Below, one piece after another: positions 2,048 to 35,469 of a DNA stretch of 64,000 bases (positions are counted from its first letter, which is position 1; every line of letters begins with the position of its first letter). This DNA is from Candidatus Moraniibacteriota bacterium (GTDB lineage: Bacteria; Patescibacteriota; Minisyncoccia; Moranbacterales; UBA1568). The notes below the pieces were generated by a model. The model did no database searches and had not been told where the DNA came from. It worked only from the letters and a program-made list of their open reading frames with translations. The position numbers and the translations under genes were made by a program. Location of the stretch: the NCBI GenBank assembly GCA_028688415.1, contig JAQTYF010000001.1, positions 400,627-464,626 on the forward strand. The letters are read 5' to 3'.

Positions 2048-4171
2048 CTACGATATTGTGATCAGATCTTCTTGTGTACTATTTTTCTTGTACGCCTTGT
2101 GCCTGAACTCTTCGTAGAGCATCGATGCGATTTTCTGAGGCAACATCTCACGTTCTACTATTTCATCCAAGAAATGTTCTTCTGCCTTAAAGAATCCTCT
2201 CCTTCCTACCTTTTCATTTTCCCAACGAAGCTCTTCTTTCATTTTTTCTCCTGATTGAAGCATCTTTTCATGAGCATCTTGTTCGAATTGCACATACAGC
2301 GCAATAACCTTTTTTACGATAATATCATCACCAAACACTCCGCAATAATGTTCCGTCAGTGTATGGAGACGATGAAGGACTTTGGATGCAATGATTTTCT
2401 GAGCACGATAATAATGATATTCGTTGATTGTTTTCTTCCGGTCGTTCATCGGTATCAAAAAATCTCGAAAGAAAGATACTGTTCGTTCGAACCAATCTGG
2501 CGAAAAAACTTCATTAATATCTTGTATTTGATGTTCTTCTCTCTCGACACGAGCCATCTGCATTTCGATTTTGTTGAGCACTTTCTTGTATACTGGTTCA
2601 GAGATTTCACGGTACATGAAAAGCTTCAGGAGAAAACGCTTCTCGGTACCGAGAGCATACATACTCAGTGCTGATTCGAGAGAATAACCATTTTTACGAA
2701 AATCATCACGTAGTACTAATAAAGAAGTTTCATATTCTGCGCTATATTCAGCATTGAGTTTCGTATATACTTCTTCATCGACAAATTCCTTTGTTCGATA
2801 ATCTTTCAATTTTTCAAGCGTCTGAGCATAGACGAGAGCTCGACTCTCGTGGTATTCAACCATCTCGAGTGGGGTCAATTGATCGAGTTTCATTTTTTTG
2901 ATCATACTTCCAATGCTGGTCGCTTTTACTAGAAGTGTAAAATAAACACAACCAATAGTCAGAGCTGAAATAAACTCTTTGATTGAGAAAGAGTATTCCC
3001 ATCCAGCAAGCGTCAGATCATTAGGGATAAGAAGTACCATCGTCACTGCAAGTGCGCCTCGGAGACTTCCCCATGAGAGCAAGTGTTGCCAAGAAAGAGG
3101 AATATGTTCTTCTTTTTTTGTTCTATTCAAGAAACCAATGACAGGGTAAATAGAGAGAGCTCTCCCGATCATAACCACGAGTACCGTCACCATGATAGGC
3201 CACACAAATTGAGAAAAATGTATAGGAAGTCCAGCAAAGAGCAATCCCATCAATATGAAAACAAGAGAATTCGCAATGAAAGCAAAGTATCCCCAGAATT
3301 TTTCCATATATTCTTCGACTCGTGGAGAGATTTTACATCTTCCATAATTCCCGATAACCATTGATGCCATTACTGTCGCAATAACAGAGGAAAGATAAAT
3401 ATGCTGCCCTCCAATAATGAGATGACGAGAGAGGAGTTCTGAGAGTATAAAAGTGAGATGCGCCATAAGCATCGTCAGTGTAATCTCGATATTTTCGTTA
3501 TCGTGTACTTTTTGTATCAGTTTGGCAAAGACAAATCCCATCAAAAGTCCAAATCCGATACCACCAACAACCATCGTCGAAAACATAAATATACCCTGTG
3601 CGACAGATTCTATCCCATGGAATCCTTTCAAAGCGATATCAATGACGATAAGGAACAATGCAATAGCGGTACCATCATTGAAAAGACTCTCCCCTTCAAA
3701 AATAAGAGAGAGTCGTTTTGGTGCTCCAAATTGCTTGAAAAGAGCGAGTACAGCAACTGGATCGGTCGCTGAAATCAGTGCTCCAAAAATAAGTGTCACA
3801 AAAAATGGCACCGGGAAATGAATCCACTGGAGTGCAAAAAACAGTACAAACGCAATAAAAAATGTCGAGAGGAGGAGACTGACTATTGAGAGAAGTGAAA
3901 TCGATCGAACATTGTCCGTCAGATCTCGGAACTTCATATTGTACGCCGATTCAAATATGAGTATTGGGAGAAAAACAAAAAAAAGAAGCTCCGGGGTAAG
4001 CTGAAAACTCTGAATGAAATGAAAGAGTGGTATATGAGAAATCGGGATCAAGAGTGTCCCAACAAGTACAAGCAGAAGCGTGTAAGGAATATGCAAACGC
4101 TCTGCAAAAAAATAGGTACCGACCGAAATAAAAATAAGTACAAAAAGAGCGAGAATTATTTCGATCGCCAT
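2048..4171 (-). CDS. Na+/H+ antiporter, CPA1 (NhaP-type) with a long C-terminal cytoplasmic domain
   Basis: 707-aa polytopic N-terminal half with 'ATDPVAV' and 'FEGESLFND' motifs typical of NhaP/NHE exchangers. Hydrophilic ~300-aa tail. Confidence 0.7.
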   Translation of the reverse strand: MAIEIILALFVLIFISVGTYFFAERLHIPYTLLLVLVGTLLIPISHIPLFHFIQSFQLTPELLFFVFLPILIFESAYNMKFRDLTDNVRSISLLSIVSLLLSTFFIAFVLFFALQWIHFPVPFFVTLIFGALISATDPVAVLALFKQFGAPKRLSLIFEGESLFNDGTAIALFLIVIDIALKGFHGIESVAQGIFMFSTMVVGGIGFGLLMGFVFAKLIQKVHDNENIEITLTMLMAHLTFILSELLSRHLIIGGQHIYLSSVIATVMASMVIGNYGRCKISPRVEEYMEKFWGYFAFIANSLVFILMGLLFAGLPIHFSQFVWPIMVTVLVVMIGRALSIYPVIGFLNRTKKEEHIPLSWQHLLSWGSLRGALAVTMVLLIPNDLTLAGWEYSFSIKEFISALTIGCVYFTLLVKATSIGSMIKKMKLDQLTPLEMVEYHESRALVYAQTLEKLKDYRTKEFVDEEVYTKLNAEYSAEYETSLLVLRDDFRKNGYSLESALSMYALGTEKRFLLKLFMYREISEPVYKKVLNKIEMQMARVEREEHQIQDINEVFSPDWFERTVSFFRDFLIPMNDRKKTINEYHYYRAQKIIASKVLHRLHTLTEHYCGVFGDDIIVKKVIALYVQFEQDAHEKMLQSGEKMKEELRWENEKVGRRGFFKAEEHFLDEIVEREMLPQKIASMLYEEFRHKAYKKNSTQEDLITIS

Positions 4172-4251
4172 ACGTTTTTCTTTAAAAGATTGATTTCAAA
4201 AACACCATGTTATTCTATGCCTTCTTCCCATAACTGTCAAAAGAAAGGCTA

Positions 4252-5301
4252 TCAAAGGATAAGCATACTGTCTCCGAAAGAATAGAAAGTAAACTCATTT
4301 GCTATAGCTATCTGATACAATTCGACAATACTTTTTTTTGCTTTTTTATCTTGCAAAAATGCATCTACAAGAAGCATGAGTGATGTTTTTGGAAGATGGA
4401 AATTGGTCACGAGAATATCCACTACACGAAACTCGTACGGTGGATAAATAAATATTTCTGTTTTTCCATTCTGTGGCAAAATTCTCTGATCACACATCGA
4501 GGATTCAAGGGTACGAAGAGCTGTTGTTCCGACAGCAATAATATTCTTCTTCTCATCCATTGCAGCATCAATATGTTGCGCTGTTTCGAGAGAAATATTT
4601 ATAAATTCTGTGTGAAGTTTTTTGGTTATGAAGTTTTCATCTGCAAGCGGTGCGAATGTCCCAAGTCCCACATTCAGTGTCAAAAAATCAGTTTCAATAT
4701 TTTTCTCTTCCAGAGACTGAAATACTTCATCGGTAAAATGAAGCGATGCTGTCGGCGCGGCAACCGATGCTCCATCTCTAGCAAACACCGTTTGGTATCG
4801 TTTTCGCAATACATCTTCTGATATATTTGCTCCCTCAAGATAGTGTGGGAGTGGTGTTTCGCCGTATGTCTCGAGTAATATTTGAAGAGAAATATTTTCT
4901 TGACTCACAAGTCTCACAAAAAAGAGATTCTCTTTCTGATCAATCACTTCCAAAAAATCTCCATTCGTGAAAAAGAGTTTTTGACCCTTCTCCGTCTTAC
5001 GATCGACGAGTACCGGAATACATTTTTCATCTTCTATCTCATTGGCAAGGACGAATACTTCTATCTTTCCGCCAGTTTCTTTCTTGAGCCAGAGTCGTGC
5101 AGGCAATACCGTCGTATTATTGAGCATCACAAGAGACTGTCTTGGGAGATACTTCGCTATATGACGAAAGGTATCAAAAGTAATCGCATCCGTCTTCGTA
5201 TCATAAACAAACAATCGTGCACTATCACGTGGCTCAATACCTTGCTTCCTGATCAAATAATCAGGAAGCGTGTAATCATATTTCTTGAGATCAATCATTT
5301 T
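4252..5301 (-). CDS. queA: S-adenosylmethionine:tRNA ribosyltransferase-isomerase
   Basis: N-terminal 'DYTLPDYLIRKQGIEPRDSARLFV' matches the QueA signature 'dYeLPeeLIAq.P.e.RD.SRLlv'. The ORF in the track extends 20 codons upstream; start chosen at MKMIDL. Confidence 0.8.
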   Translation of the reverse strand, partial: KMIDLKKYDYTLPDYLIRKQGIEPRDSARLFVYDTKTDAITFDTFRHIAKYLPRQSLVMLNNTTVLPARLWLKKETGGKIEVFVLANEIEDEKCIPVLVDRKTEKGQKLFFTNGDFLEVIDQKENLFFVRLVSQENISLQILLETYGETPLPHYLEGANISEDVLRKRYQTVFARDGASVAAPTASLHFTDEVFQSLEEKNIETDFLTLNVGLGTFAPLADENFITKKLHTEFINISLETAQHIDAAMDEKKNIIAVGTTALRTLESSMCDQRILPQNGKTEIFIYPPYEFRVVDILVTNFHLPKTSLMLLVDAFLQDKKAKKSIVELYQIAIANEFTFYSFGDSMLIL

Positions 5302-5375
5302 CATAAAAAATTTTCGAAAGAAAAAAGGTTCAATGCAGTACACTAAACCTTTCTCGATCATTATTCACTTCTCGT

Positions 5376-5876
5376 TCAGAGAGGTGCATCACTCTTTTTT
5401 CGATTTTCGACTATTTGTAGAGATTGGCGTATCTGGGATTCTAGTCTTGCGACCGTGAATTCAAAATACTGATAAACTTCTCGTCGCGCTTCTTTGAAGC
5501 AATTTTCGAAACGTGCATCCACCAGTGGTGCATGGGGTCGCAAGCCCTTCTCGAGAAGATCGATATAGTATTCATCCAATTCATACAGTAAACTGTGACG
5601 AATAATATCAATACTCGCTATTTTCTGTTGTAATTGTTCGATATAAAGGGAAGCAACAGATTCATATTCCGCTGATTCGCGGAGCAACTTGATTGTTTTT
5701 GTATGGTATTCAGGAACGACAGTTTGCATGATACACTCCTCGAATGGTGAAAAAGTACTTTGTAAAAACTCTACCAGAAAAAAACTCTTCTGTCTATACA
5801 AACTCTTCTGTACAAATAACGATAAAATATTTTGTGGTATTATTTTTTCATTTTCATAACTCCATATATTTTTCAA
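5376..5876 (-). CDS. Hypothetical protein (166 aa)
   Basis: Intact ORF packed between queA and the acyltransferase gene on the same strand. No recognisable motif. Confidence 0.4.
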   Translation of the reverse strand: MKNIWSYENEKIIPQNILSLFVQKSLYRQKSFFLVEFLQSTFSPFEECIMQTVVPEYHTKTIKLLRESAEYESVASLYIEQLQQKIASIDIIRHSLLYELDEYYIDLLEKGLRPHAPLVDARFENCFKEARREVYQYFEFTVARLESQIRQSLQIVENRKKSDAPL

Positions 5877-5879
5877 TCC

Positions 5880-6509
5880 TTAGATTTTTTCGAAGAGCAT
5901 TCTGATTTCTCGACAACCTATCGGATGAGTATCAAAACTATATATCTGACTGAATTTCATCGTTGGCTTCTTTCGTGTGAGTATATCCCAATACGATCCG
6001 AAACCATCCATACGAACGAAAATAACGCCATTACTACTTTGCATAAAAAATTCTATACCACGCTGGAAATCTCCTATCGATTCTTTGTTAATTTTTCCTT
6101 CTGGAAAAAGGAAAATCGTTCTACCTCGTTTGAGAAAATCACGTGTTCTCATAAGACCGATGAGTTTTTCTTTTTTTGTCTCTCCGATATCATACCCACC
6201 AAGCACTTTCAAAAATGGCTTAAAATAGAACCGATTGTATTCTTTGTTATCAACAGGGAAATAGAGAGGCACGAGTTTCAAAAAAGATCGGAAAGGAATA
6301 TGGCTCAAAACAACGAAGGGATCTGCCATTGATTGGTGATTCGAAACAACGAGCACTCCTCTGTTGAGTATATTGAGATTTTCTGGCAATGTCCTATTCG
6401 TACCGTACAAAATCCGTACTGGGTATGACATCACAATATGTAAGAATATTTGGACGAGCGAACGACCATATTCGATGAGTGTATATTTCTGAACCTGTTT
6501 CATAGTCAT
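5880..6509 (-). CDS. PlsC/LPLAT-family acyltransferase (1-acylglycerol-3-phosphate O-acyltransferase-like)
   Basis: 'VVSNHQSMADPFVV' carries the HX4D catalytic box. 'FLFPEGKIN' carries the FPEG box of glycerolipid acyltransferases. Confidence 0.7.
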   Translation of the reverse strand: MTMKQVQKYTLIEYGRSLVQIFLHIVMSYPVRILYGTNRTLPENLNILNRGVLVVSNHQSMADPFVVLSHIPFRSFLKLVPLYFPVDNKEYNRFYFKPFLKVLGGYDIGETKKEKLIGLMRTRDFLKRGRTIFLFPEGKINKESIGDFQRGIEFFMQSSNGVIFVRMDGFGSYWDILTRKKPTMKFSQIYSFDTHPIGCREIRMLFEKI

Positions 6510-6524
6510 ACTCTACAAAAAGTA

Positions 6525-7439
6525 TTAAATACGTCCTTTTGATTTCAAAATTTGAAGAGCGACAAAAAGTTTGAGTTTCTGCCATGGATTTCTATTTCCG
6601 AAAGGAATATAGACTTTCTTCAGTGTTCGCAGATACGGATCAAAATGAAGAGAGTGCGGTACAGGGTATACTTTCTGATGAAAAAGTATCTTCAGAACCT
6701 CTGTTGAAACAAGATTGGCACAGAGGAGTGTCCCTGTCACGAGTGAAGGAGCCTTCTTTTCTTTCCAATCGACGCCTTCGGGTTTGAAATAACGTCGTTG
6801 AAGCAGTGTCGGCGTCAGACCAAGTCCAAAACGAAGCAATTGCATTTCTTTTGTTTGTTCATCACAAATATCGAAATACTCATCAAAACTCATTCCATGA
6901 GGATCAAAAACAAGCATAGAAGAGCCAAAACCAACTGGCCCTGCTGATACCGCAAAAACAGCCTGTTCCCGAGCAGATAAAAAAAGCATCCGACGAGTCT
7001 CAATAGCGAAAAAATCAAGGGCATCAACAACAACATCAACACCAGAGAGAAAAGAATCGATATTTTCAGTATGTATTCCTTGAGGGAAAGTCGTCACTTT
7101 TGCATACGGATTGATAGAATGAATCATTTTTTCCACCGCTTCTACTTTCGGTGTACCAACGGTATCCATTGTTGCCGATTGCTGTCTATTGATATTCACC
7201 ACTTCATACGTATCAAGATCAGCAATATGAAATTTTCCAAATCCGAGACGTGCGAAAGTACTGGCATAAAGAGCTCCTACACCCCCGAGTCCAGGTATCG
7301 CTATCGTCATATTTCTCAATTGCGCCTGTTGTTCCGGTGTCAACAATCCATTATTTCTCGAAAATGCCTCTGCATAAAACTCATTTTCGTTCAACATAAG
7401 ATTTTTACTTTTAATAAAAAATGGGTGTCCTACATACAA
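6525..7439 (-). CDS. ThiF/MoeB/E1-like adenylyltransferase
   Basis: 'IAIPGLGGVGALYA' Gly-rich nucleotide loop followed by 'DLDTYEVVNINRQ'. These match the ThiF family G-x-G-x-x-G and D.D.v..SNLnRQ boxes. No N-terminal peptide-clamp extension. Confidence 0.7.
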   Translation of the reverse strand: MYVGHPFFIKSKNLMLNENEFYAEAFSRNNGLLTPEQQAQLRNMTIAIPGLGGVGALYASTFARLGFGKFHIADLDTYEVVNINRQQSATMDTVGTPKVEAVEKMIHSINPYAKVTTFPQGIHTENIDSFLSGVDVVVDALDFFAIETRRMLFLSAREQAVFAVSAGPVGFGSSMLVFDPHGMSFDEYFDICDEQTKEMQLLRFGLGLTPTLLQRRYFKPEGVDWKEKKAPSLVTGTLLCANLVSTEVLKILFHQKVYPVPHSLHFDPYLRTLKKVYIPFGNRNPWQKLKLFVALQILKSKGRI

Positions 7440-7449
7440 ATAAATGCAC

Positions 7450-8115
7450 TCAATCTGAATGTCTGGATTGGCTCATACTCGACTGTAGAGGTACTTTCTG
7501 AATCAGTTCTCCTCTTGCATACGATTCGAGAATAGAAGATATTTTCTCTTTTTTGAGATCTCTCACCTGAACATTGGTAATAATCAATGCGACATAACGA
7601 AGGAACCAACGACCACTCCACTCTTGCAACAGCACGTCGTATGGCATTTCCATATTTCCAATAGGAAGACGATTATCGAAAGAATCTGATCCAATACGAG
7701 AATCATAAATATAGAACACTTTCTTTACATCGCTGTATCCTCCAACAGCTATCCAGTGAAGCGTGTTTGCTCGAATCAAAAGCACGGGAGGCCTCTTCTT
7801 GAGAGCTATCTCCGTGCGAATCCATTCGAGACGTTCTTCATTTGTTATAGCGTCGAGTCGGATCTCGAGAGTCGTCATATTATGAGCTTTGAATAGCTCT
7901 TTCATATCACGGGGAAAAACAGGACGAAACAAATCAAACCACACCGGACCTCGAAGCAATTTATTCGAAGAAAGAGAGCGGACACCTACAGCTTTGGCAA
8001 CCCATTCAGCTGTATACGATCCACAACGAATATGTGACCAATGGTCAATGAGAGGATTAGAGACAAGATCGACATATGCTTCTGCTGGTAACAGTTCTCT
8101 CGCTTCAGATTTCAT
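7450..8115 (-). CDS. Papain-fold Cys-His-Asp protein, C39 peptidase-like / BtrH-like
   Basis: Cys in 'HIRCGSYTAEW' near residue 31. His in 'LHWIAVGGY' near residue 120. Asp in 'YIYDS' about 18 residues later. The spacing resembles C39/BtrH_N domains. Assignment by pattern only. Confidence 0.4.
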   Translation of the reverse strand: MKSEARELLPAEAYVDLVSNPLIDHWSHIRCGSYTAEWVAKAVGVRSLSSNKLLRGPVWFDLFRPVFPRDMKELFKAHNMTTLEIRLDAITNEERLEWIRTEIALKKRPPVLLIRANTLHWIAVGGYSDVKKVFYIYDSRIGSDSFDNRLPIGNMEMPYDVLLQEWSGRWFLRYVALIITNVQVRDLKKEKISSILESYARGELIQKVPLQSSMSQSRHSD

Positions 8116-8136
8116 AAAAATATATTCACCGTTTTA

Positions 8137-8388
8137 TCAGTGTTTTATTTGCGATTTTTTCAAATACGTCACTATGTCACCGAGCGTTTCAATATTGATG
8201 AGGTCGATATAATTCGCTTCAAGATGGAAAGCTTCTTCAAATGCTGTGATGAGACTGAACATCGCAATCGAATCTTCTGCCAAGTCATCGATTCGCAAAG
8301 AAAAATCTAGATCTTTCAATGGTTTATTAAAAACACGCGAAACAATTGCGAGTACCCTTGATTCGGTTGTTTCGTCATTATTCTCCAT
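8137..8388 (-). CDS. Acyl carrier protein-like (83 aa)
   Basis: 'IDDLAEDSIAMFSLITAFEEAF' matches the ACP helix-II phosphopantetheine site (D-S-L/I followed by an acidic helix). Size fits a four-helix ACP. Overlaps the PPTase gene by 11 nt. Confidence 0.65.
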   Translation of the reverse strand: MENNDETTESRVLAIVSRVFNKPLKDLDFSLRIDDLAEDSIAMFSLITAFEEAFHLEANYIDLINIETLGDIVTYLKKSQIKH

Positions 8389-9037
8389 ACGGTTCTACAT
8401 AAAGTATAGCACCAAATGGACATCCTGGAAAACTCAGTTTCTCTGGCCGTATCCTTCTTTCCTGACCATCTTGTATCAAAGAAAGAAGTTCTCCTCGATT
8501 ATTTATGGTTGTTTCTATGGCATGGGGATGGAGAGCGAGTCCTGCTCCAATTGCCTTCAGGAAAGCTTCTTTGTAACACCATATCTGAAGAAATGGAATA
8601 TGATAACGGATACAAGAATCATATTCCTTAGGAGTCAAGAATGATCGCGAAAATGCCTCTGTACACTCTCGATCGTGTTCTATATCCACTCCGACATACC
8701 CTGTTTCTTCTATAAGAGACAATCCAGCGATTGCTTTTCCTTTCGTATGACTGAGAGACAGAGAATATTCTGAGTGAAAAACAATATCATCATGATGAAG
8801 AATACGGAAATCTGGCCTCGTATGAGAATCACTGATAATTTCTATGTCGATTGGCGCAACCTCTCTATGCCACTGATTCCGAATCATCTGCGAGATGATG
8901 TGTTTGGCAGCTATCCGTCCAGCAAGCCAGTCAGGCTGTTTTTTTTCTGACAATTGCTCGTACTGACTCTGTTCTTTCGGAGACAGACTTTGTTTCATCA
9001 ATACCGAAGATATTTCTTCTTCCCAAAAATAGAACAT
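8378..9037 (-). CDS. 4'-phosphopantetheinyl transferase, Sfp-type
   Basis: PPTase motifs 'GVDIEHDRE' (G-x-D-x-E) and 'WCYKEAFLKAIG' (W/F-x-x-KEA-x-x-K). 219 aa is Sfp-length rather than AcpS-length. Confidence 0.75.
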   Translation of the reverse strand: MFYFWEEEISSVLMKQSLSPKEQSQYEQLSEKKQPDWLAGRIAAKHIISQMIRNQWHREVAPIDIEIISDSHTRPDFRILHHDDIVFHSEYSLSLSHTKGKAIAGLSLIEETGYVGVDIEHDRECTEAFSRSFLTPKEYDSCIRYHIPFLQIWCYKEAFLKAIGAGLALHPHAIETTINNRGELLSLIQDGQERRIRPEKLSFPGCPFGAILYVEPYGE

Positions 9038-9167
9038 ATTCTATATAAAAAATAAATAAAAATAAGCGGTATCACTACTCTTTCTTTCTTCTCCATCTTC
9101 AGTATATGATAAGAACGGAAATCAATGCAAAAGGACAGGAAATATGCTAATATAATGGGTAGATATT

Positions 9168-10355
9168 ATGCGTTATCTTCTTCTCGTCATCATTTTTGTC
9201 CTTCGTGATTTCAGCAAAGCTCGCGCTATTTTTACTATGGTTGTTATCAGTCTCGCTATTGCTTCTACATCGGTACTCGCAACCAATAGCATCCTCGCTG
9301 GGTTTCAAGAGATGCTCAGTAAAGGAGTAAAGGGCTGGATAGGAGATATATTCATTATACCAACGGAAGAGAAGCCATCTATTGATCATGCTGAAGACAT
9401 CATATCAGATATCAAGACACTTCAGTATGTAGAAGCAGTGAGTGTGCGTGCGTCAGCTGATGGAACATTTAAATACAAAGACAAAATCAGTGCACCTTTT
9501 TCACTTATTGGTGTTGATACGGGAGCAGAGGCCTACACTACCGGACTCCCCTCTACCGTCATCCAAGGCCAATTCCTCGATATTACAATGGATTCAGAAA
9601 GTATCATACTGGGTCTCAATTTTGCTGATAGCTTCATAGGAGGTCCGTATGATGGATCAAGTCTTTCTGTAGGAGAAAAGCTCCAGTTCATTCGTAACGA
9701 CGGCAGTGTCAAAGAATATCGTATCAAAGGTATCATTGATGGAAAAAACTTCCTTGCTAATTTCTCTGCAATGCTCCAAAAAGATGAGGTGGAGAGAATA
9801 TCTGTCGAACGTCGCAACAGTTCTATTGTTGTCAAAGTTTCAGAGGAAGAAAAGATAGAATCAGTCAAAAAAACGATTGCCGAAAGACATCCTGATGTTA
9901 TCGTCCATAATTGGATCGAGGAATCAGGCTATGTCGAAGGCATTATGCAAACCGTATATTACATCACGTTTCTCATCTCATCTCTTCTGATTTTCTCAGT
10001 TTTCTTTATCATCGCCATCGTCATATTTATCAATATTTCTCAGAAAAAACGTCAAATCGGAATCATGAAATCAATGGGTGCTACCACTCGTTTTATTGTC
10101 TCCATTTACGTCTTGGAATCGGTCCTATACTTCGTCTTCTCCTATCTCCTTGGTATTCTCCTCTTTCTCGTTATTCATTCTTATTCTGTTTCACACTCAG
10201 TGCCACTTTTGATTGGTGACTTCCATACCGTACTTGATTGGCAGAAAAATATTCTTTATTTCTTCATTCTCCTCCTTTCGGCTTTCCTCGGCGGACTTAT
10301 CCCTTCCTTTTTTGCTTCGAAACAAAAAATTATTGATACACTCCGTAGCACCTAA
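9168..10355 (+). CDS. ABC transporter permease, FtsX/MacB-like
   Basis: N-terminal TM helix, ~230-aa extracytoplasmic domain, then three C-terminal TM helices with 'MKSMGATTRFIV'. This is the typical MacB/LolE permease topology. Confidence 0.75.
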   Translation: MRYLLLVIIFVLRDFSKARAIFTMVVISLAIASTSVLATNSILAGFQEMLSKGVKGWIGDIFIIPTEEKPSIDHAEDIISDIKTLQYVEAVSVRASADGTFKYKDKISAPFSLIGVDTGAEAYTTGLPSTVIQGQFLDITMDSESIILGLNFADSFIGGPYDGSSLSVGEKLQFIRNDGSVKEYRIKGIIDGKNFLANFSAMLQKDEVERISVERRNSSIVVKVSEEEKIESVKKTIAERHPDVIVHNWIEESGYVEGIMQTVYYITFLISSLLIFSVFFIIAIVIFINISQKKRQIGIMKSMGATTRFIVSIYVLESVLYFVFSYLLGILLFLVIHSYSVSHSVPLLIGDFHTVLDWQKNILYFFILLLSAFLGGLIPSFFASKQKIIDTLRST

Positions 10356-10359
10356 ATCT

Positions 10360-11061
10360 ATGCAAAAACCCATTATTCAATTCAAAGATGTCACCAAGAT
10401 CTATTCTGGAGCAGGCGTATCTTCGACAATGGCCTTGAATGGTATCAACCTCGAGATTTATGAGAATGAATTCGTCGCAATCACAGGAAGTTCTGGATCA
10501 GGAAAAAGTACCATCCTCAATCTCATTGGCCTCCTCGATGATCCAACCTCTGGCGAGATACTTTTCAATGGAAAAAATGTTCATCAATTAAACGAGAAGG
10601 AGAAAAATACTTTCCGTCTCCAGTCTATTGGATTTATTTTCCAATTTTTCAATCTCATCGACAACTACACAGCTCTCGAAAATATCGTCTTTCAACTCGA
10701 ACTCCAAGGAAAAAGCTACGAAAAAGCCAAAGCGGATGGTCTCGAAATACTCAAATATCTCCACCTCGAAAATCGTGCGCATCTTTACCCGAAAAATCTC
10801 TCTGGTGGCGAACAGCAACGAGTCGCTATTGGACGAGCTCTCGCCAAAGAATCCCCTTTCATTATTGCTGATGAACCAACCGCTCATCTCGACTCAAAGA
10901 ATTCACAGGATGTTATGGATATACTGCACCATATACAGACCACATTCCATCGGACACTCATCCTCGTGACTCACGAACCTTTCCAAGCAGAACAAGCTGA
11001 TCGACAAATCATTATTCGTGATGGAAAAGTAGCAGAAATAATTACAAAAAAAATCGCCTAA
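10360..11061 (+). CDS. ABC transporter ATP-binding protein (MacB/LolD-type)
   Basis: Walker A 'GSSGSGKST', Q-loop, signature 'LSGGEQQRVAIGRAL', Walker B 'IIADEPT'. Start reassigned to ATG 10360, directly after the permease stop 10353..10355. The track ORF from 10213 is an upstream extension of the same frame. Confidence 0.85.
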   Translation: MQKPIIQFKDVTKIYSGAGVSSTMALNGINLEIYENEFVAITGSSGSGKSTILNLIGLLDDPTSGEILFNGKNVHQLNEKEKNTFRLQSIGFIFQFFNLIDNYTALENIVFQLELQGKSYEKAKADGLEILKYLHLENRAHLYPKNLSGGEQQRVAIGRALAKESPFIIADEPTAHLDSKNSQDVMDILHHIQTTFHRTLILVTHEPFQAEQADRQIIIRDGKVAEIITKKIA

Positions 11062-11104: not shown

Positions 11105-12676
11105 ATGAAACTTTCTCTCATTATTTTTAGTATCCTCTTTACTTGCCTTGTTCTCATTTTAGGAACATTTTTCTTGGTTCCAGATTTTTCATTCTTTGGA
11201 TTACGAGGACAACCCACTGAAGACAAAAATATTGTCGCTATAGAACGTGGTGAGCTCACAAAAATAATTACTATCAACAATGCCAAACTCGTTGCTTTAG
11301 ATGATTTCGAACTGTCATTTCCTTTTCCTGGTCGAGTAGAATCCATTTCTGTTCAAGAAGGACTCGTCGTATCTGCTCAAAGCACTCTCCTCGAACTCGA
11401 CACGACAGAGCTCGAACTCGAACGACAAAAAGCTCTCGCTCTCGTACACCAAAGCACCACCAATCTTGCTCAAGCCAGGGCTGGAGTACGAAGTGGTGAG
11501 ATTGCTGTTTTTTCCGACAAAGTGAAAGGTGCCAAAACCTCTCTTTCTGGGAGCAAAAAAAATCTCGTCGATGCACTACAAAATGCTTACGTCACCACTG
11601 ATGACGCACTGCACAATCTCTCGGATCGGACACTGGTCGATCCTACGGGTGATGCTCCTCAAATCAATTTTATCCTCAGTGATACCGATCTCGAAAATGA
11701 AATAGAGACTGATCGCAAGTCTCTCGAAGGAGAACTCTCGGATTTCAAAAACGATGTAGATGGTCTGGATACATCAGACAATCTCACCAAAGCGCATACC
11801 TCTGCAGAAAAAAAAGTTGAAAATATCAGAAAATATCTCGATAATCTCGCATCTGGACTCAATAAAACAACTGCTTCAGGATCACTTACCGAAGAACTGC
11901 TCACCGACTGGCGATCAGCACTGACGCTCGCTCGTACCAATGTCAGTACTGCGAAAAGCAATCTCTCTGCCATGTTCAATGCCTATCAGAATGCAGGACA
12001 AAGTCTCACGCTGGTCAAAAGTGAACTTGATGTACAAGGATCAGGCAACGTCGTTTATGACATCGATATGAGTCGATTCCAGCTTGAAGAAGCAGAACGA
12101 ATGCTCGATATTGCGAACGAAAAACTCCTCCAAGCAACTCTCGTTTCTCCACAGGATAACCTCATTGTGAAGAAAATCTATCCCAATACGGGTGAACGAC
12201 TGAGTGCTCACCAACCAGCCGTCTATCTCGCTACTGGTGCGCTTCAGATACAGATTGATATTCCAGAAGAAGATATTGCTGGAGTCACTACTGGCAATAT
12301 CGTACACCTAACACTTGGCGCTTTTCCAAACCATCCTCCTATCGAAGGGGTGATCGATACTATCGAGCCCAATGAACTCTCAAAAAATGAAAGTATCTAT
12401 TATCGAGCTTTCGCTACACTCAAAAAACAAGAGCCTGAGTGGCGTACAGGTATGACAGGAGAAGTAGAGATTCGTGTTGGTGCTACCACCGCTCTCCAGG
12501 TCCCGAAAAGTGCTGTTTACAAAAAAAATGGAAAACAATACATCCAGAAAGTGTCTACCACAGGCACAGAAGAGCAGGAGGTGACTACGGGATTGTCAGG
12601 AGAAAATACCTTGGAAATCACTGGTGCCTCGATCAAACAAGGAGATACTGTGCTTCGTTATCCGAAACTTCCTTAA
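11105..12676 (+). CDS. HlyD-family periplasmic adaptor (membrane fusion protein)
   Basis: N-terminal signal anchor, lipoyl-like 'GRVESISVQEGLVV', a very long coiled-coil middle, and a C-terminal beta-barrel region. Confidence 0.7.
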   Translation: MKLSLIIFSILFTCLVLILGTFFLVPDFSFFGLRGQPTEDKNIVAIERGELTKIITINNAKLVALDDFELSFPFPGRVESISVQEGLVVSAQSTLLELDTTELELERQKALALVHQSTTNLAQARAGVRSGEIAVFSDKVKGAKTSLSGSKKNLVDALQNAYVTTDDALHNLSDRTLVDPTGDAPQINFILSDTDLENEIETDRKSLEGELSDFKNDVDGLDTSDNLTKAHTSAEKKVENIRKYLDNLASGLNKTTASGSLTEELLTDWRSALTLARTNVSTAKSNLSAMFNAYQNAGQSLTLVKSELDVQGSGNVVYDIDMSRFQLEEAERMLDIANEKLLQATLVSPQDNLIVKKIYPNTGERLSAHQPAVYLATGALQIQIDIPEEDIAGVTTGNIVHLTLGAFPNHPPIEGVIDTIEPNELSKNESIYYRAFATLKKQEPEWRTGMTGEVEIRVGATTALQVPKSAVYKKNGKQYIQKVSTTGTEEQEVTTGLSGENTLEITGASIKQGDTVLRYPKLP

Positions 12677-12684
12677 CCATCTCT

Positions 12685-13365
12685 ATGAATATCGTCTACT
12701 CCCGTGCACTCACAACGACTGACCGACAGATTGCATCACAAATCATCAAGCGACAATACGCTGAAAGCGGATATACTGTTTCCGAAGCAGACATCGATGA
12801 CAAGATGGTACATTTTCTTGATCAAAAAACTGCACAAGTATATCTCGCTCAATACGAAAATACTCCTCTTGCCACTATTTCTCTTATCGGAGATTCATCC
12901 GCTGGTCTCCCTCTCGATGAGCTCTACAAAACAGAAATAGACTCTCTTCGTGCGCAAGGTTTCCGACTCGCAGAGGTCTCACAACTCGCTGTCGATACGA
13001 AGCACGCTCTCGAATTTCTTCCAGAAAAAATCCTCAAAAGAAATCTTCTTCTCTTCCCCTTCTTCCAAATCATTCTTCAATCTGCAATACAAAAAAAAAT
13101 CGATGCTCTCTGCATCGCTATCAATCCCAAGCATGATTTCTTTTATACGACATTGGGCTTCGAAACAATCGGGGAGCTCAAATACTATACGTCATTCAAC
13201 AATGCTCCAGCATTTGCCAAAATATTGAGGCTCGATACTCTGACAAAGAAAAAAGAAGAAACAAATTTCCTCTCTCGAATGATGTCTGATATTTCCCCGA
13301 TCGATCCGCTCGTATTCACCGGTGAACAAAAACTGATTTTTCCTCTTGAAATATCTCAGAAATGA
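12685..13365 (+). CDS. GNAT-superfamily N-acyltransferase, LuxI/FeeM/OlsB-like (putative N-acyl amino acid synthase)
   Basis: 'FRLAEVSQLAVD' resembles the R..E.SR.AV box of acyl-ACP-dependent N-acyltransferases. Start set at ATG 12685 (MNIVYS), after the adaptor stop. The track ORF from 12439 is an out-of-context extension overlapping the adaptor gene. Confidence 0.4.
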   Translation: MNIVYSRALTTTDRQIASQIIKRQYAESGYTVSEADIDDKMVHFLDQKTAQVYLAQYENTPLATISLIGDSSAGLPLDELYKTEIDSLRAQGFRLAEVSQLAVDTKHALEFLPEKILKRNLLLFPFFQIILQSAIQKKIDALCIAINPKHDFFYTTLGFETIGELKYYTSFNNAPAFAKILRLDTLTKKKEETNFLSRMMSDISPIDPLVFTGEQKLIFPLEISQK

Positions 13366-33269: not shown

Positions 33270-33357
33270 AACATATTAGCAAATTTTGACCATTTTGTCA
33301 AGGGTAGATTTTTCAGCTATACTAGAAAGCATTCGGCTTTATATAAAACAAAAAACT

Positions 33358-35469
33358 ATGCAATTTGAAACACTTTTTTCTCCAAAATCTATCGCAGTCA
33401 TCGGAGCATCCACACAGGTTGGCACGGTCGGCTACACCCTCACCGAAAACCTTCTCCAAAACGGATACACTGGGAAGGTCTATCCGGTCAATCCAAAAAC
33501 GGATACACTCTTCAATCTCCCTTGTTATGCAAACATTTCTCTTATTCCCTACGACATCGAACTCGCTATCATTATTGTTCCAGCACATATCGTCCCTGTC
33601 GTTCTTCGCGAAGTCGCTGCCAAAGGCATAGCCTCCGCGATCATCATCTCTGCCGGGTTCAAAGAAACAGGTGAAGCCGGAGAGAAGCTCGAAATGGAAA
33701 TAACAACTATTGCACGAGAAAATAATATCGCTCTTCTCGGACCGAATTGTCTCGGATTTCTCCGCCCTTCTCTCGGGCTCAATGCTTCTTTTGCAAAAAT
33801 TCTTCCGAGTGATGGACACATCGCTTTCTTCTCTCAGAGCGGTGCTCTTTGTACAGCCCTCCTCGATCTCACCACGACGTCACTTGGCTTCTCACATTTT
33901 GTGAGCATCGGTAACAAAGCTATCATCGATGAGAACACCCTTCTTCAATTTTTCTCTGCCGATAAAAATGTTTCTGTCATCAGTTGTTATACCGAAGGCG
34001 TCACTGATGCCAACAAAATGATAGAAACGGGTCGTGCTATACTCGCGAGATCCGATGCCAAACCAATCATCGCTCTTAAATCAGGAACGACCACTGCCGG
34101 CACGCAGGCATCAAGCTCTCATACGGGTGCTCTCGCCGGGAGCGATGCAGCTTACATCGCACTCTTCAAACAATCTCGCATCATCCGTGCGGAGAGTCTC
34201 GAAAATCTGATCGATCTCCTCACAGTTTTTTCTCACAACACCCTTCCAGAAGACAACCGCGTCGCTATTATTACGAATGCTGGAGGACTCGGTGTTCTCG
34301 CTACGGATGCTGCCATCGAGAGCGGTCTCCGTATTGCGCCCCTCAGTAATGTGACCAAGTCACGGCTACGTGATGTCCTCCCTCCGTCTGCCAGCGTGAA
34401 CAATCCAGTTGATGTACTCGGTGATGCACTCGCAGAACGTTATGAACACGCACTCGAAGTAGTAGTCAGAGATGAATCCGTCGATATGATACTTGTCATC
34501 GTCACCCCACAGACCATGACGGAAGATGTGAAGACTGCCGAAGCACTCATTGCTATAAAAAAGCACTACAACAAACCAATTGTTGCTGTGTTTGCTGGTC
34601 AAGAATCATTCCGTGCTGGGAGCGACCTCCTGAAATCTCATGGTGTGGCCGTCCTCACCTATCCAGAATCCGGTATGCGAGCACTCGGATCACTCGCTCA
34701 GGTTACCAAGTGGCGTAAACAGCTCATTGTTCCAGAGATAACTCTCAGTAATATCGACAAGGAAAAGGCTCGAAAAATACTCGATGATGTACAAAAAAAT
34801 GGTCGCGCGACGCCGACTGAAAAAGAAACGAGCGAAATCCTCAGTGCTTATGGATTCCCCTTCTTTGCTACCTATGAAGTACAAACGAGAGAAGAGGCTA
34901 TTTCTGCAGGACAGAAAATCGGCAAAAAAGTCGCTCTCAAAATCGTCTCGCCAGACATCATTCACAAATCCGATGCGGGCGGAGTAATACTTGGTATCGA
35001 TTCAAGCGACGTCGGAGAGGCCTACGATCGGCTGATGGTCACGGTCAAGAAAAATGTTCCTGACGCACATATCACTGGTGCACTCGTCGTCGAAATGGCA
35101 GAATCGGGTGGTAAAGAACTCCTCCTCGGACTCAAGAAAGAACCCGGACTCGGTACCCTCCTTGTTTTCGGTCTCGGTGGTATCTATGTCGAAACACTCA
35201 AAGATGTCACGATGCGTTTTGTTCCAACCAATGAAACTGATATCGATGAAATGATCCGAGAAATAAAAAGTTTTGCCATTCTCTCCGGAGTACGAGGTGA
35301 ATCGGGTATCGATATGTCCTATCTGAGAGAAGTCTTGATGCGTCTGACACAGTTTGCAATAGATTTCCCGGAAGTCGCTGAGCTCGATATCAACCCTCTC
35401 CTTTCCTTTCCTCAAAAAGAAAATTTCCGTGTTCTCGATGCGCGTATCCGTCTCGAAAAAACGCTCTGA
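33358..35469 (+). CDS. ADP-forming acyl-CoA synthetase, fused alpha/beta (CoA-binding + ATP-grasp)
   Basis: 'SIAVIGASTQVGTVGY' CoA-binding Rossmann start, ligase-CoA domain, and a C-terminal ATP-grasp ('DIIHKSDAGGV'). Start taken at MQFETL 33358. Confidence 0.7.
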   Translation: MQFETLFSPKSIAVIGASTQVGTVGYTLTENLLQNGYTGKVYPVNPKTDTLFNLPCYANISLIPYDIELAIIIVPAHIVPVVLREVAAKGIASAIIISAGFKETGEAGEKLEMEITTIARENNIALLGPNCLGFLRPSLGLNASFAKILPSDGHIAFFSQSGALCTALLDLTTTSLGFSHFVSIGNKAIIDENTLLQFFSADKNVSVISCYTEGVTDANKMIETGRAILARSDAKPIIALKSGTTTAGTQASSSHTGALAGSDAAYIALFKQSRIIRAESLENLIDLLTVFSHNTLPEDNRVAIITNAGGLGVLATDAAIESGLRIAPLSNVTKSRLRDVLPPSASVNNPVDVLGDALAERYEHALEVVVRDESVDMILVIVTPQTMTEDVKTAEALIAIKKHYNKPIVAVFAGQESFRAGSDLLKSHGVAVLTYPESGMRALGSLAQVTKWRKQLIVPEITLSNIDKEKARKILDDVQKNGRATPTEKETSEILSAYGFPFFATYEVQTREEAISAGQKIGKKVALKIVSPDIIHKSDAGGVILGIDSSDVGEAYDRLMVTVKKNVPDAHITGALVVEMAESGGKELLLGLKKEPGLGTLLVFGLGGIYVETLKDVTMRFVPTNETDIDEMIREIKSFAILSGVRGESGIDMSYLREVLMRLTQFAIDFPEVAELDINPLLSFPQKENFRVLDARIRLEKTL

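Follow-up and report, generated by a model that had tools for sequence, protein, structure and literature searches.

Within a 64,000-nucleotide stretch of contig JAQTYF010000001.1 from a Candidatus Moraniibacteriota bacterium (hereafter the window), a ThiF/E1-fold adenylating enzyme and a papain-like Cys-His-Asp protein are encoded side by side in a cluster that, with a probability we put at roughly 0.55, builds and exports a lipid derived from an N-acyl amino acid, the ThiF enzyme adenylating and the papain-like protein acting as a CtaG/BtrH-like transacylase or as a hydrolase. It is very likely that these two proteins, together with the lipid genes and the exporter encoded around them, belong to an N-acyl amino acid lipid cluster. 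The initial annotation of this DNA had picked out an E1-like open reading frame (ORF) beside an ORF for a C39-like Cys-His-Asp protein, and both are borne out by Pfam and NCBIfam matches, an invariant triad, AlphaFold2 (AF2) models, and Foldseek comparisons taken together. It had passed over the genes for an acyl carrier protein (ACP), a 4′-phosphopantetheinyl transferase (PPTase), a PlsC-like acyltransferase, and a FeeM-type N-acyl amino acid synthase (NAS), and it is this context that identifies the system as one of lipid or N-acyl amino acid biosynthesis.

The ThiF enzyme is encoded on the minus strand at 6525..7397 and is assigned to the PRK08223 family by Pfam ThiF, NF006077, and its AF2 model; the ORF as listed spans 6525..7439 on the minus strand (304 aa from TTG), and because close homologs are ~290 aa long, the start is probably the ATG at 7397 (290 aa). 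The papain/C39/BtrH-like protein of 221 aa is encoded on the same strand (7450..8115), with 21 nt between its gene and the ACP gene upstream and 52 nt between it and the ThiF gene downstream. The ACP (8137..8388, minus strand; 83 aa) carries the DS phosphopantetheine-attachment motif and matches Pfam PP-binding (9.5e-8) and the NCBIfam ACP models, and the PPTase (8378..9037, minus strand; 219 aa) is of the Sfp type, with matches to Pfam ACPS (1.6e-15) and 4PPT_N. These two genes overlap by 11 nt (8378-8388), which would fit coupled translation of the carrier and the enzyme that activates it. The PlsC-like acyltransferase (5880..6509, minus strand; 209 aa) matches Pfam Acyltransferase (3.9e-10) and contains the HX4D motif NHQSMAD; its top NCBIfam match is acyl-[ACP]--phospholipid O-acyltransferase. 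The minus-strand genes, in the order PPTase, ACP, papain-like, ThiF, PlsC-like, and a 166-aa ORF, are tightly packed, with intergenic gaps of 3-52 nt and the one 11-nt overlap. Across an AT-rich spacer of 130 bp (9038..9167), presumed to hold the promoters, a second operon runs divergently on the plus strand and encodes a MacB/LolCE-type ATP-binding cassette (ABC) permease (9168..10355; Pfam FtsX 2e-14 and the periplasmic core MacB_PCD 4e-13), a LolD/MacB-like ABC ATPase (10360..11061; Pfam ABC_tran 1e-32, LolD 217 bits), an HlyD/RND-type membrane-fusion (adaptor) protein (11105..12676; TIGR01730, 105 bits against a cutoff of 94.9, and Pfam HlyD_3), and the 226-aa FeeM-type NAS (12685..13365; Pfam FeeM PF21926, 2.6e-29). 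The ATPase ORF is listed from 10213, with a probable start at ATG 10360, and the FeeM ORF from 12439, with a computed probable start at ATG 12685.

The same genes recur together in related loci, in an order shuffled by lineage: papain-like, ThiF, FeeM, ACP, PPTase, PlsC-like, and usually an ABC exporter. BLAST maps placed the full set in every related locus with enough flanking sequence (L001, L002/L003/L011, L004/L005, L010, and L012), whereas L006/L007 end directly after ThiF. The papain-like and ThiF genes were found together in all eight distinct related loci examined, overlapping by 4 nt in L001, and the ABC permease is conserved in L001, L004, and L010. The initial annotation had proposed a functional link between the E1-like and papain-like genes and had suspected that the neighboring ABC/HlyD exporter was part of the same module, and the conserved neighborhoods agree with it on both points. 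A scan of genome contigs with the papain-like profile, under stringent search patterns, returned three loci, and a cluster of the same kind surrounds a distant papain-like homolog in L017 (P0028, profile E = 3e-21). The named genomes with such loci, Moraniibacteriota, Saccharibacteria, and Zambryskiibacteriota, are all Patescibacteria, to which, judging from the sequences, this type of cluster appears to be largely confined.

Around this set, the related loci carry variable accessory genes for UbiE-like methyltransferases, GDSL lipases, alpha/beta-hydrolase-like proteins, VTT/DedA membrane proteins, and a FAD_binding_4 oxidase, and, only in L012 among the papain-linked loci, for a nitroreductase-superfamily flavin-dependent oxidase (FDO). 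No counterpart was found when the 64-kb window was searched by tblastn with accessory proteins (two FDOs, the FAD oxidase, methyltransferase, GDSL, VTT/DedA, alpha/beta-hydrolase-like, and small unknown proteins), which makes the cluster in the window a minimal version. We detected no FDO in L001, L002, or L004; one is present in L012, L014, L015, and a fusion protein of Desulfovibrio vulgaris (Nitratidesulfovibrio vulgaris) described below.

The ThiF protein matches Pfam ThiF with E = 4e-41 and scores 326 bits against NCBIfam NF006077/PRK08223 (cutoff 266), residues 22-300 being covered; at E ≤ 1e-20 the family counts about 1,956 proteins. In alignments of 25-31 family sequences, R14, N15, G36/38/41, D60, D62, N68, R71, Q72, K84, and D125 are invariant, so that the adenylation motifs (Gly-rich loop, Arg finger, NxxRQ, Lys, and Mg-binding Asp) are intact, and we found no invariant or near-invariant Cys and no CxxC zinc motif. 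The AF2 model (predicted local distance difference test score, pLDDT, 94.6) is a single ThiF domain over all 290 aa, ending in a family-specific C-terminal beta-hairpin and helix. Searching with the family profile gave TcdA as the nearest solved relative (E = 1.7e-25), with ThiF, MoeB, and the E1s lower, and the top Foldseek match of the model was AclA of Tenacibaculum discolor (PDB 9egb/9egc; E = 5e-18, template modeling (TM) score 0.72-0.83), followed by ThiF, PaaA, MoeB, UBA5, and MccB. The AclA structure is deposited as "in complex with substrate." The window enzyme is predicted to adenylate a carboxylate, and in this the initial annotation holds up.

Were the ThiF enzyme an activator of a sulfur carrier (ThiS/MoaD) with partners elsewhere in the genome, its position beside the papain-like gene would be coincidental. 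Its generic similarity to ThiF and MoeB speaks for this reading, but it scores 104 bits against a cutoff of 159 for the ThiF equivalog, 75 against 266 for MoeB, and 62 against 304 for TcdA, and falls far under the cutoffs of the SAMP-E1 and Rv1355c families, while passing that of PRK08223. The lack of a conserved Cys or zinc CxxC motif and the retention of the adjacency across rearranged loci likewise speak against a sulfur-carrier activator, which we consider highly improbable; the grouping with such enzymes that the initial annotation had left open is not what we observed.

That annotation had also raised ubiquitin-like protein (Ubl) conjugation, possibly in antiphage defense. In such a module an E1 would be matched by a deubiquitinase of the papain-like kind, on the pattern of Bil, Bub, and CBASS Cap2/Cap3; 6A-MBL was compared as well. 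The ThiF fold and the Cys protease fold in the adjacent gene would suit such a module, and there are weak partial matches to Cap2 E1-E2 models (50 bits) and BubCD; those that PADLOC reported for the cluster reach at most 53 bits and lie in the nucleotide-binding part of the Cap2-type E1-E2 models, with none for the papain-like protein. Domain scans found no Ubl, E2, or JAB gene, in keeping with what had first been noted for Ubl and E2, and the 3-52-nt gaps leave no room for one and contain no small Gly-ending ORF. With no conserved E1 Cys in the ThiF family, with lipid biosynthesis genes as conserved neighbors, and with the locus lying amid housekeeping genes (DnaX, QueA, SecA, a Mur ligase, MurG, FtsW, a penicillin-binding protein, and LysRS), we regard a conjugation or defense role as extremely improbable. 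A similar fate meets the suggestion of a ribosomally synthesized and post-translationally modified peptide (RiPP) of the microcin C kind, in which the ThiF enzyme would adenylate a peptide C terminus, the C39-like protein would cleave the leader, and the ABC/HlyD proteins would export the product. Although the ThiF fold is related to MccB and PaaA, the neighbor is C39-like, and an ABC exporter and adaptor are adjacent, there is no candidate precursor ORF, the exporter is of the MacB/FtsX type rather than a C39-fused peptidase-containing ABC transporter (PCAT), and the conserved partners are FeeM, ACP, PPTase, and PlsC. In contrast to MccB and PaaA, the window ThiF has no RiPP recognition element-like clamp: as had been noted at the outset, no N-terminal peptide clamp is present, the ThiF domain filling the protein. 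Such a maturation module is very unlikely.

The known chemistry of ThiF enzymes encoded with N-acyl amino acid synthases offers a closer parallel. In the OxzAB (Pseudoalteromonas rubra), TyzACB, and TrzAS (Mycobacterium tuberculosis) pathways, as in the window cluster, where FeeM lies in the divergent operon, an NAS is combined with an ATP-dependent enzyme of the ThiF fold. OxzA, TyzA, and TrzA N-acylate an aromatic amino acid; the ThiF components of OxzB, TyzB, and TrzS turn this product into an adenylate, which collapses to a 5(4H)-oxazolone, and a flavin oxidase desaturates the ring (bioRxiv 10.1101/2020.06.11.147165; PMC10404671; PMC12856293). In TrzS, substitution of a conserved ThiF Asp abolishes cyclization (PMC12856293). 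For the stieleriacine-type clusters (NAS, methyltransferase, ThiF, and nitroreductase), the role of ThiF has been called enigmatic, since no oxazolone was seen (PMC12479983).

Other members of PRK08223 are joined to FeeM and to TrzS/Acg-type FDOs in one polypeptide or encoded next to them, in some loci with MacB-type exporters nearby. The window ThiF also matches the ThiF portions of the longer families PRK14851 (679 aa) and PRK14852 (989 aa), and the window FeeM matches the N-terminal domain of the PRK14852 fusion family. One case was found by a tblastn search of plasmids: DVU_RS16045, a 989-aa protein of plasmid pDV of Nitratidesulfovibrio vulgaris Hildenborough, is 40% identical over the full ThiF, consists by Pfam of a FeeM-ThiF-nitroreductase triple fusion, matches PRK14852/NF011425 over its full length (2397 bits), and has a ThiF part that meets the PRK08223 cutoff; going by its domains, it would in effect be a complete single-polypeptide "oxazolone synthetase." The ThiFs of L012, L014, and L015 also pass the NF006077/PRK08223 cutoff, and the FDOs encoded next to them match the flavin-oxidase half of the Rv1355c (TrzS) family (181-227 bits). 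Since the standalone oxidases beside ThiF in L012 and L015 match positions 320-676 of PRK14851, that family can be read as a ThiF-FDO di-domain family with the architecture of OxzB and TrzS. L014 encodes an FDO, ThiF, PlsC-like enzyme, PPTase, ACP, FeeM, and exporter with no papain-like gene, and L015 has a FeeM-ThiF-FDO operon beside a MacB exporter, with no ACP or PPTase nearby. A 177-aa ORF in L014 and a 315-aa ORF in L015, considered as hidden papain-like genes, were rejected (hhalign probability below 1% against the papain-like profile). In a rough neighbor-joining tree of 13 ThiFs, built without support values, the papain-linked and FDO-linked enzymes interleave. On these grounds it is probable that the window ThiF acts on the carboxylate of an N-acyl amino acid.

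A different use of the adenylate would be to charge the carrier: the ThiF enzyme would adenylate a free fatty acid or an N-acyl amino acid and transfer it to the phosphopantetheine thiol of the ACP, replacing an acyl-ACP synthetase in an organism without fatty acid synthesis, and the papain-like and PlsC-like enzymes would offload the ACP. Adenylation followed by thioester formation is the ancestral logic of the E1 fold, ThiF always occurs with an ACP and PPTase in the Patescibacteria-type clusters, and we found no AMP-binding acyl-ACP synthetase or fatty acid synthase (FAS) gene in the clusters or the window. The last of these results includes ten large ORFs elsewhere in the window that were checked for a source of acyl-ACP; all are housekeeping genes, and none among them is an AMP-binding acyl-ACP synthetase or FAS gene. 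Against ACP loading, L015 and the D. vulgaris fusion combine ThiF with FeeM and an FDO with no ACP or PPTase nearby, which speaks for the N-acyl amino acid as the conserved substrate and against any need for a carrier; we also know of no characterized ThiF enzyme that loads a carrier protein. We consider this role of the enzyme unlikely.

The papain-like protein gave no match in direct searches of Pfam, NCBIfam, and PADLOC, and its matches to PDB chain sequences were noise. In a set of 5.8 billion proteins we found 22 homologs, one of them, encoded on a 939-kb contig of Candidatus Moranbacteria, 100% identical, and C31, H120, and D138 are invariant in the alignment. An exhaustive profile search of 1.84 billion proteins placed six representatives below 1e-30. 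In the AF2 model (pLDDT 84.8), Cys31 lies where a helix starts, two consecutive strands carry His120 and Asp138, and the protein is confidently modeled as having a papain/C39-like fold. Its best Foldseek match in the PDB was the phytochelatin synthase-like acyl-enzyme Alr0975 (E = 4e-5); the C39 domains of PCAT1, LahT, and ComA (target-normalized TM ~0.7), staphopain, and AvrRpt2 were also matched. The distant profile relatives include proteins that match Pfam Peptidase_C39_2 above its cutoff and BtrH_N below it, and also the PF11814 family; one of them, the C39_2 protein P0033, lies among glycosyltransferases and outside the cluster-specific family, and for another, P0030, the contig is too short to show the neighborhood. 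The papain-like proteins form a small family that, by sequence, is confined to clusters of this type.

Some enzymes of this fold transfer acyl groups. CtaG of closthioamide biosynthesis, a small C39/BtrH-like protein with a Cys-His-Asp triad, forms amide bonds in a carrier protein-dependent manner through an acyl-Cys intermediate; it is a proven transacylase assigned to the families C39_2, BtrH_N, and PF11814, and BtrH and AdmF are other examples (PMC7183216). Like CtaG and BtrH (butirosin), the window protein is a small soluble Cys-His-Asp protein of the papain clan, apparently related at a distance to C39/BtrH_N, and its gene adjoins those for a carrier protein and for an enzyme that activates carboxylates with ATP; the parallel with AdmF (andrimid) is looser. 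It differs in that its activating enzyme has a ThiF fold whereas theirs has an ATP-grasp fold, and it lacks the C-terminal region of BtrH and reaches no Pfam threshold. With the bacteriocin-processing C39 domain it shares the papain fold with a Cys/His/Asp(Asn) triad, yet it is standalone, has no Pfam C39 match, and is accompanied by neither a PCAT-type exporter nor a double-glycine leader peptide gene. The CtaG precedent, the match to Alr0975, which is of the acyl-enzyme transpeptidase type and which we count toward transacylation, and the adjacency of the gene to those for the ACP and ThiF lead us to propose a Cys31-dependent transfer between the ACP or ThiF and an acceptor. This analogy makes transacylation our tentative choice for the protein, at somewhat less than even odds.

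The same cluster, with the same role for ThiF, could instead use the papain-like protein as a hydrolase, and this we hold to be a serious alternative although unlikely. It could be an acyl-ACP thioesterase for release or editing, or an amidase or ring-opening enzyme acting on N-acyl amino acids or oxazolones, and its purpose could be product release, proofreading, or self-protection. Most enzymes of the papain/C39 fold are hydrolytic and peptidases are among the top structural matches; hydrolytic tailoring is common in the related clusters, where additional GDSL lipases and alpha/beta-hydrolase-like proteins are often encoded, and in L012 the papain-like gene occurs alongside an FDO. Yet the best structural match, Alr0975, works by acyl-enzyme transfer, as do BtrH and CtaG, and the gene is strictly tied to ThiF and the ACP, not to the variable tailoring genes.

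Taking the papain-like protein as a CtaG/BtrH-type transacylase, the cluster might operate as follows. The Sfp-type PPTase would convert the dedicated ACP to its holo form, as the families of the two proteins imply, and the FeeM-type synthase would attach a fatty acyl group, probably donated by acyl-ACP, to the nitrogen of an amino acid, for which we take FeeM with its ACP FeeL to be the precedent. ThiF would then adenylate this N-acyl amino acid on its carboxylate, giving the adenylate or a saturated 5(4H)-oxazolone; because there is no desaturase to stabilize the ring, the activated species would be a reactive acyl donor and not a stable product. In the least certain step, the activated N-acyl-aminoacyl group would be captured by a thiol, either Cys31 or the phosphopantetheine of the ACP, and the papain-like protein would pass the N-acyl-aminoacyl (or acyl) group to an acceptor nucleophile. 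The PlsC-like enzyme would add or transfer an acyl group from the ACP, and the MacB-type pump with its adaptor would export the product.

Several observations weigh against this pathway. The fatty acid-loading enzyme that the ACP would need was found neither in the cluster nor in the 64-kb window. The link to N-acyl amino acids derives from fusions and neighborhoods of family members that are themselves uncharacterized, and the similarity of the window ThiF to the ThiF domain of the characterized TrzS is generic (83 bits, in the N-terminal half). The papain-like protein has no significant direct match to the BtrH_N or C39 models, its structural matches are moderate when normalized to the query (TM ~0.5-0.6), and a hydrolytic role would fit the modeled papain fold equally well. 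The presence in L012 of both a papain-like gene and an FDO indicates that the papain-like protein is not a simple replacement for the desaturase. As to the product, the window differs from the oxazolone pathways in having no FDO and in adding an ACP, a PPTase, a PlsC-like enzyme, and a papain-like protein, and these differences, with the generic TrzS similarity, make an unsaturated oxazolone unlikely.

Other systems resemble parts of the cluster. In the FeeM/FeeL system from soil environmental DNA, a PF21926 synthase is likewise encoded together with its own ACP; partners of the ThiF, papain-like, or PlsC-like kinds are, to our knowledge, absent from the fee cluster. In the biosynthesis of ornithine and glycine lipids by OlsB and OlsA, an amino acid N-acyltransferase acts with a PlsC-family O-acyltransferase using acyl-ACP, and the pairing of an N-acyltransferase with a PlsC-family enzyme is also present in the window; the window N-acyltransferase, in contrast, is of the FeeM type with no OlsB/Acetyltransf_5 match, and ThiF and the papain-like protein have no Ols counterpart. 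TcdA, the tRNA ct6A cyclodehydratase, adenylates and cyclizes the carboxylate of an N-carbamoylated amino acid (a threonine moiety) without a Ubl, but its substrate is tRNA-bound t6A, and the window ThiF falls well below its cutoff, as given above.

A number of further features of these loci were noted. The 166-aa ORF at 5376..5876 (minus strand), 3 nt from the PlsC-like gene and 14 nt from queA, has no Pfam, NCBIfam, or PADLOC match and no homolog in the related loci by BLAST; it may be a lineage-specific addition or lie outside the cluster, of which its membership is doubtful. Consensus-based scans for promoters and terminators gave counts at or near chance and were uninformative. A 727-aa ADP-forming acyl-CoA synthetase (CoA_binding, Succ_CoA_lig, and ATP-grasp_5) encoded at 33286-35469 on the plus strand is the only acyl-activating enzyme that we noticed in the window. 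L001 (GCA_034680565.1; 44.8-kb contig) has the full cluster, with ThiF and papain-like proteins ~60% identical to those of the window, and its contig also encodes COX1, COX3, and COX4 (heme-copper oxidase) and UbiA, which is unusual for Patescibacteria; horizontal transfer into a bacterium that respires could account for it, as could chimeric assembly. L012 (Zambryskiibacteriota; 3784-10558) encodes two FeeM paralogs, a TrzS/Acg-type FDO, a GDSL lipase, a VTT/DedA protein, a methyltransferase, and the papain-like protein, and is the sole locus seen with both an FDO and a papain-like protein. The FAD_binding_4 oxidase, of ~545 aa, adjoins the papain-like gene in two divergent lineages (L010 4171-5820, minus strand; L016 5196-6824; L017 554-2182) and could be an alternative to the nitroreductase-type FDO. 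A protein of 136-143 aa with no Pfam match, 52% identical between L004 (7692-8123) and L010 (2853-3263) and absent from the window, is encoded directly upstream of the papain-like gene in L004 or of ThiF in L010. DVU_RS16045 (L008 9062-12031) lies within an XrtA/PEP-CTERM exosortase polysaccharide locus, beside THxN PEP-CTERM proteins, a setting that suggests that exosortase systems and N-acyl amino acid chemistry are connected. On Bdellovibrio sp. plasmid pBdHAGR2 (L009; 4251-8852), a PRK08223-like ThiF (42% identity) comes after a LolA-like protein, an ABC ATPase, a permease, and a 388-aa protein, with no FeeM annotated nearby; this is a further setting for PRK08223, one with a possible part in lipid or lipoprotein transport.

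The partnership of an NAS with a ThiF enzyme is already known, and the recognition that ThiF enzymes act on small N-acyl amino acids is recent (OxzB in 2020-21, TyzB in 2023, and TrzS in 2025). What sets the cluster reported here apart is the absence of an FDO combined with a dedicated ACP, a PPTase, a PlsC-like enzyme, and a cluster-specific papain-fold protein; our literature search did not find this version described, nor any paper linking FeeM or N-acyl amino acid synthases to bacteria of the Candidate Phyla Radiation (CPR). With no desaturase, and with ThiF paired with a carrier and a papain-fold Cys enzyme, the arrangement suggests that the adenylate or oxazolone can be an activated intermediate for onward transfer and not the end product. 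[quoted passage not shown] The Patescibacteria, or CPR bacteria, have reduced genomes and are generally thought to lack de novo lipid synthesis, and a conserved, exported lipo-amino acid product in these organisms could bear on their envelope or on their interaction with the host. If the cascade were real, lipid-poor CPR episymbionts would have gained an ATP-driven means of making or attaching lipid anchors without fatty acid or nonribosomal peptide synthetase machinery.

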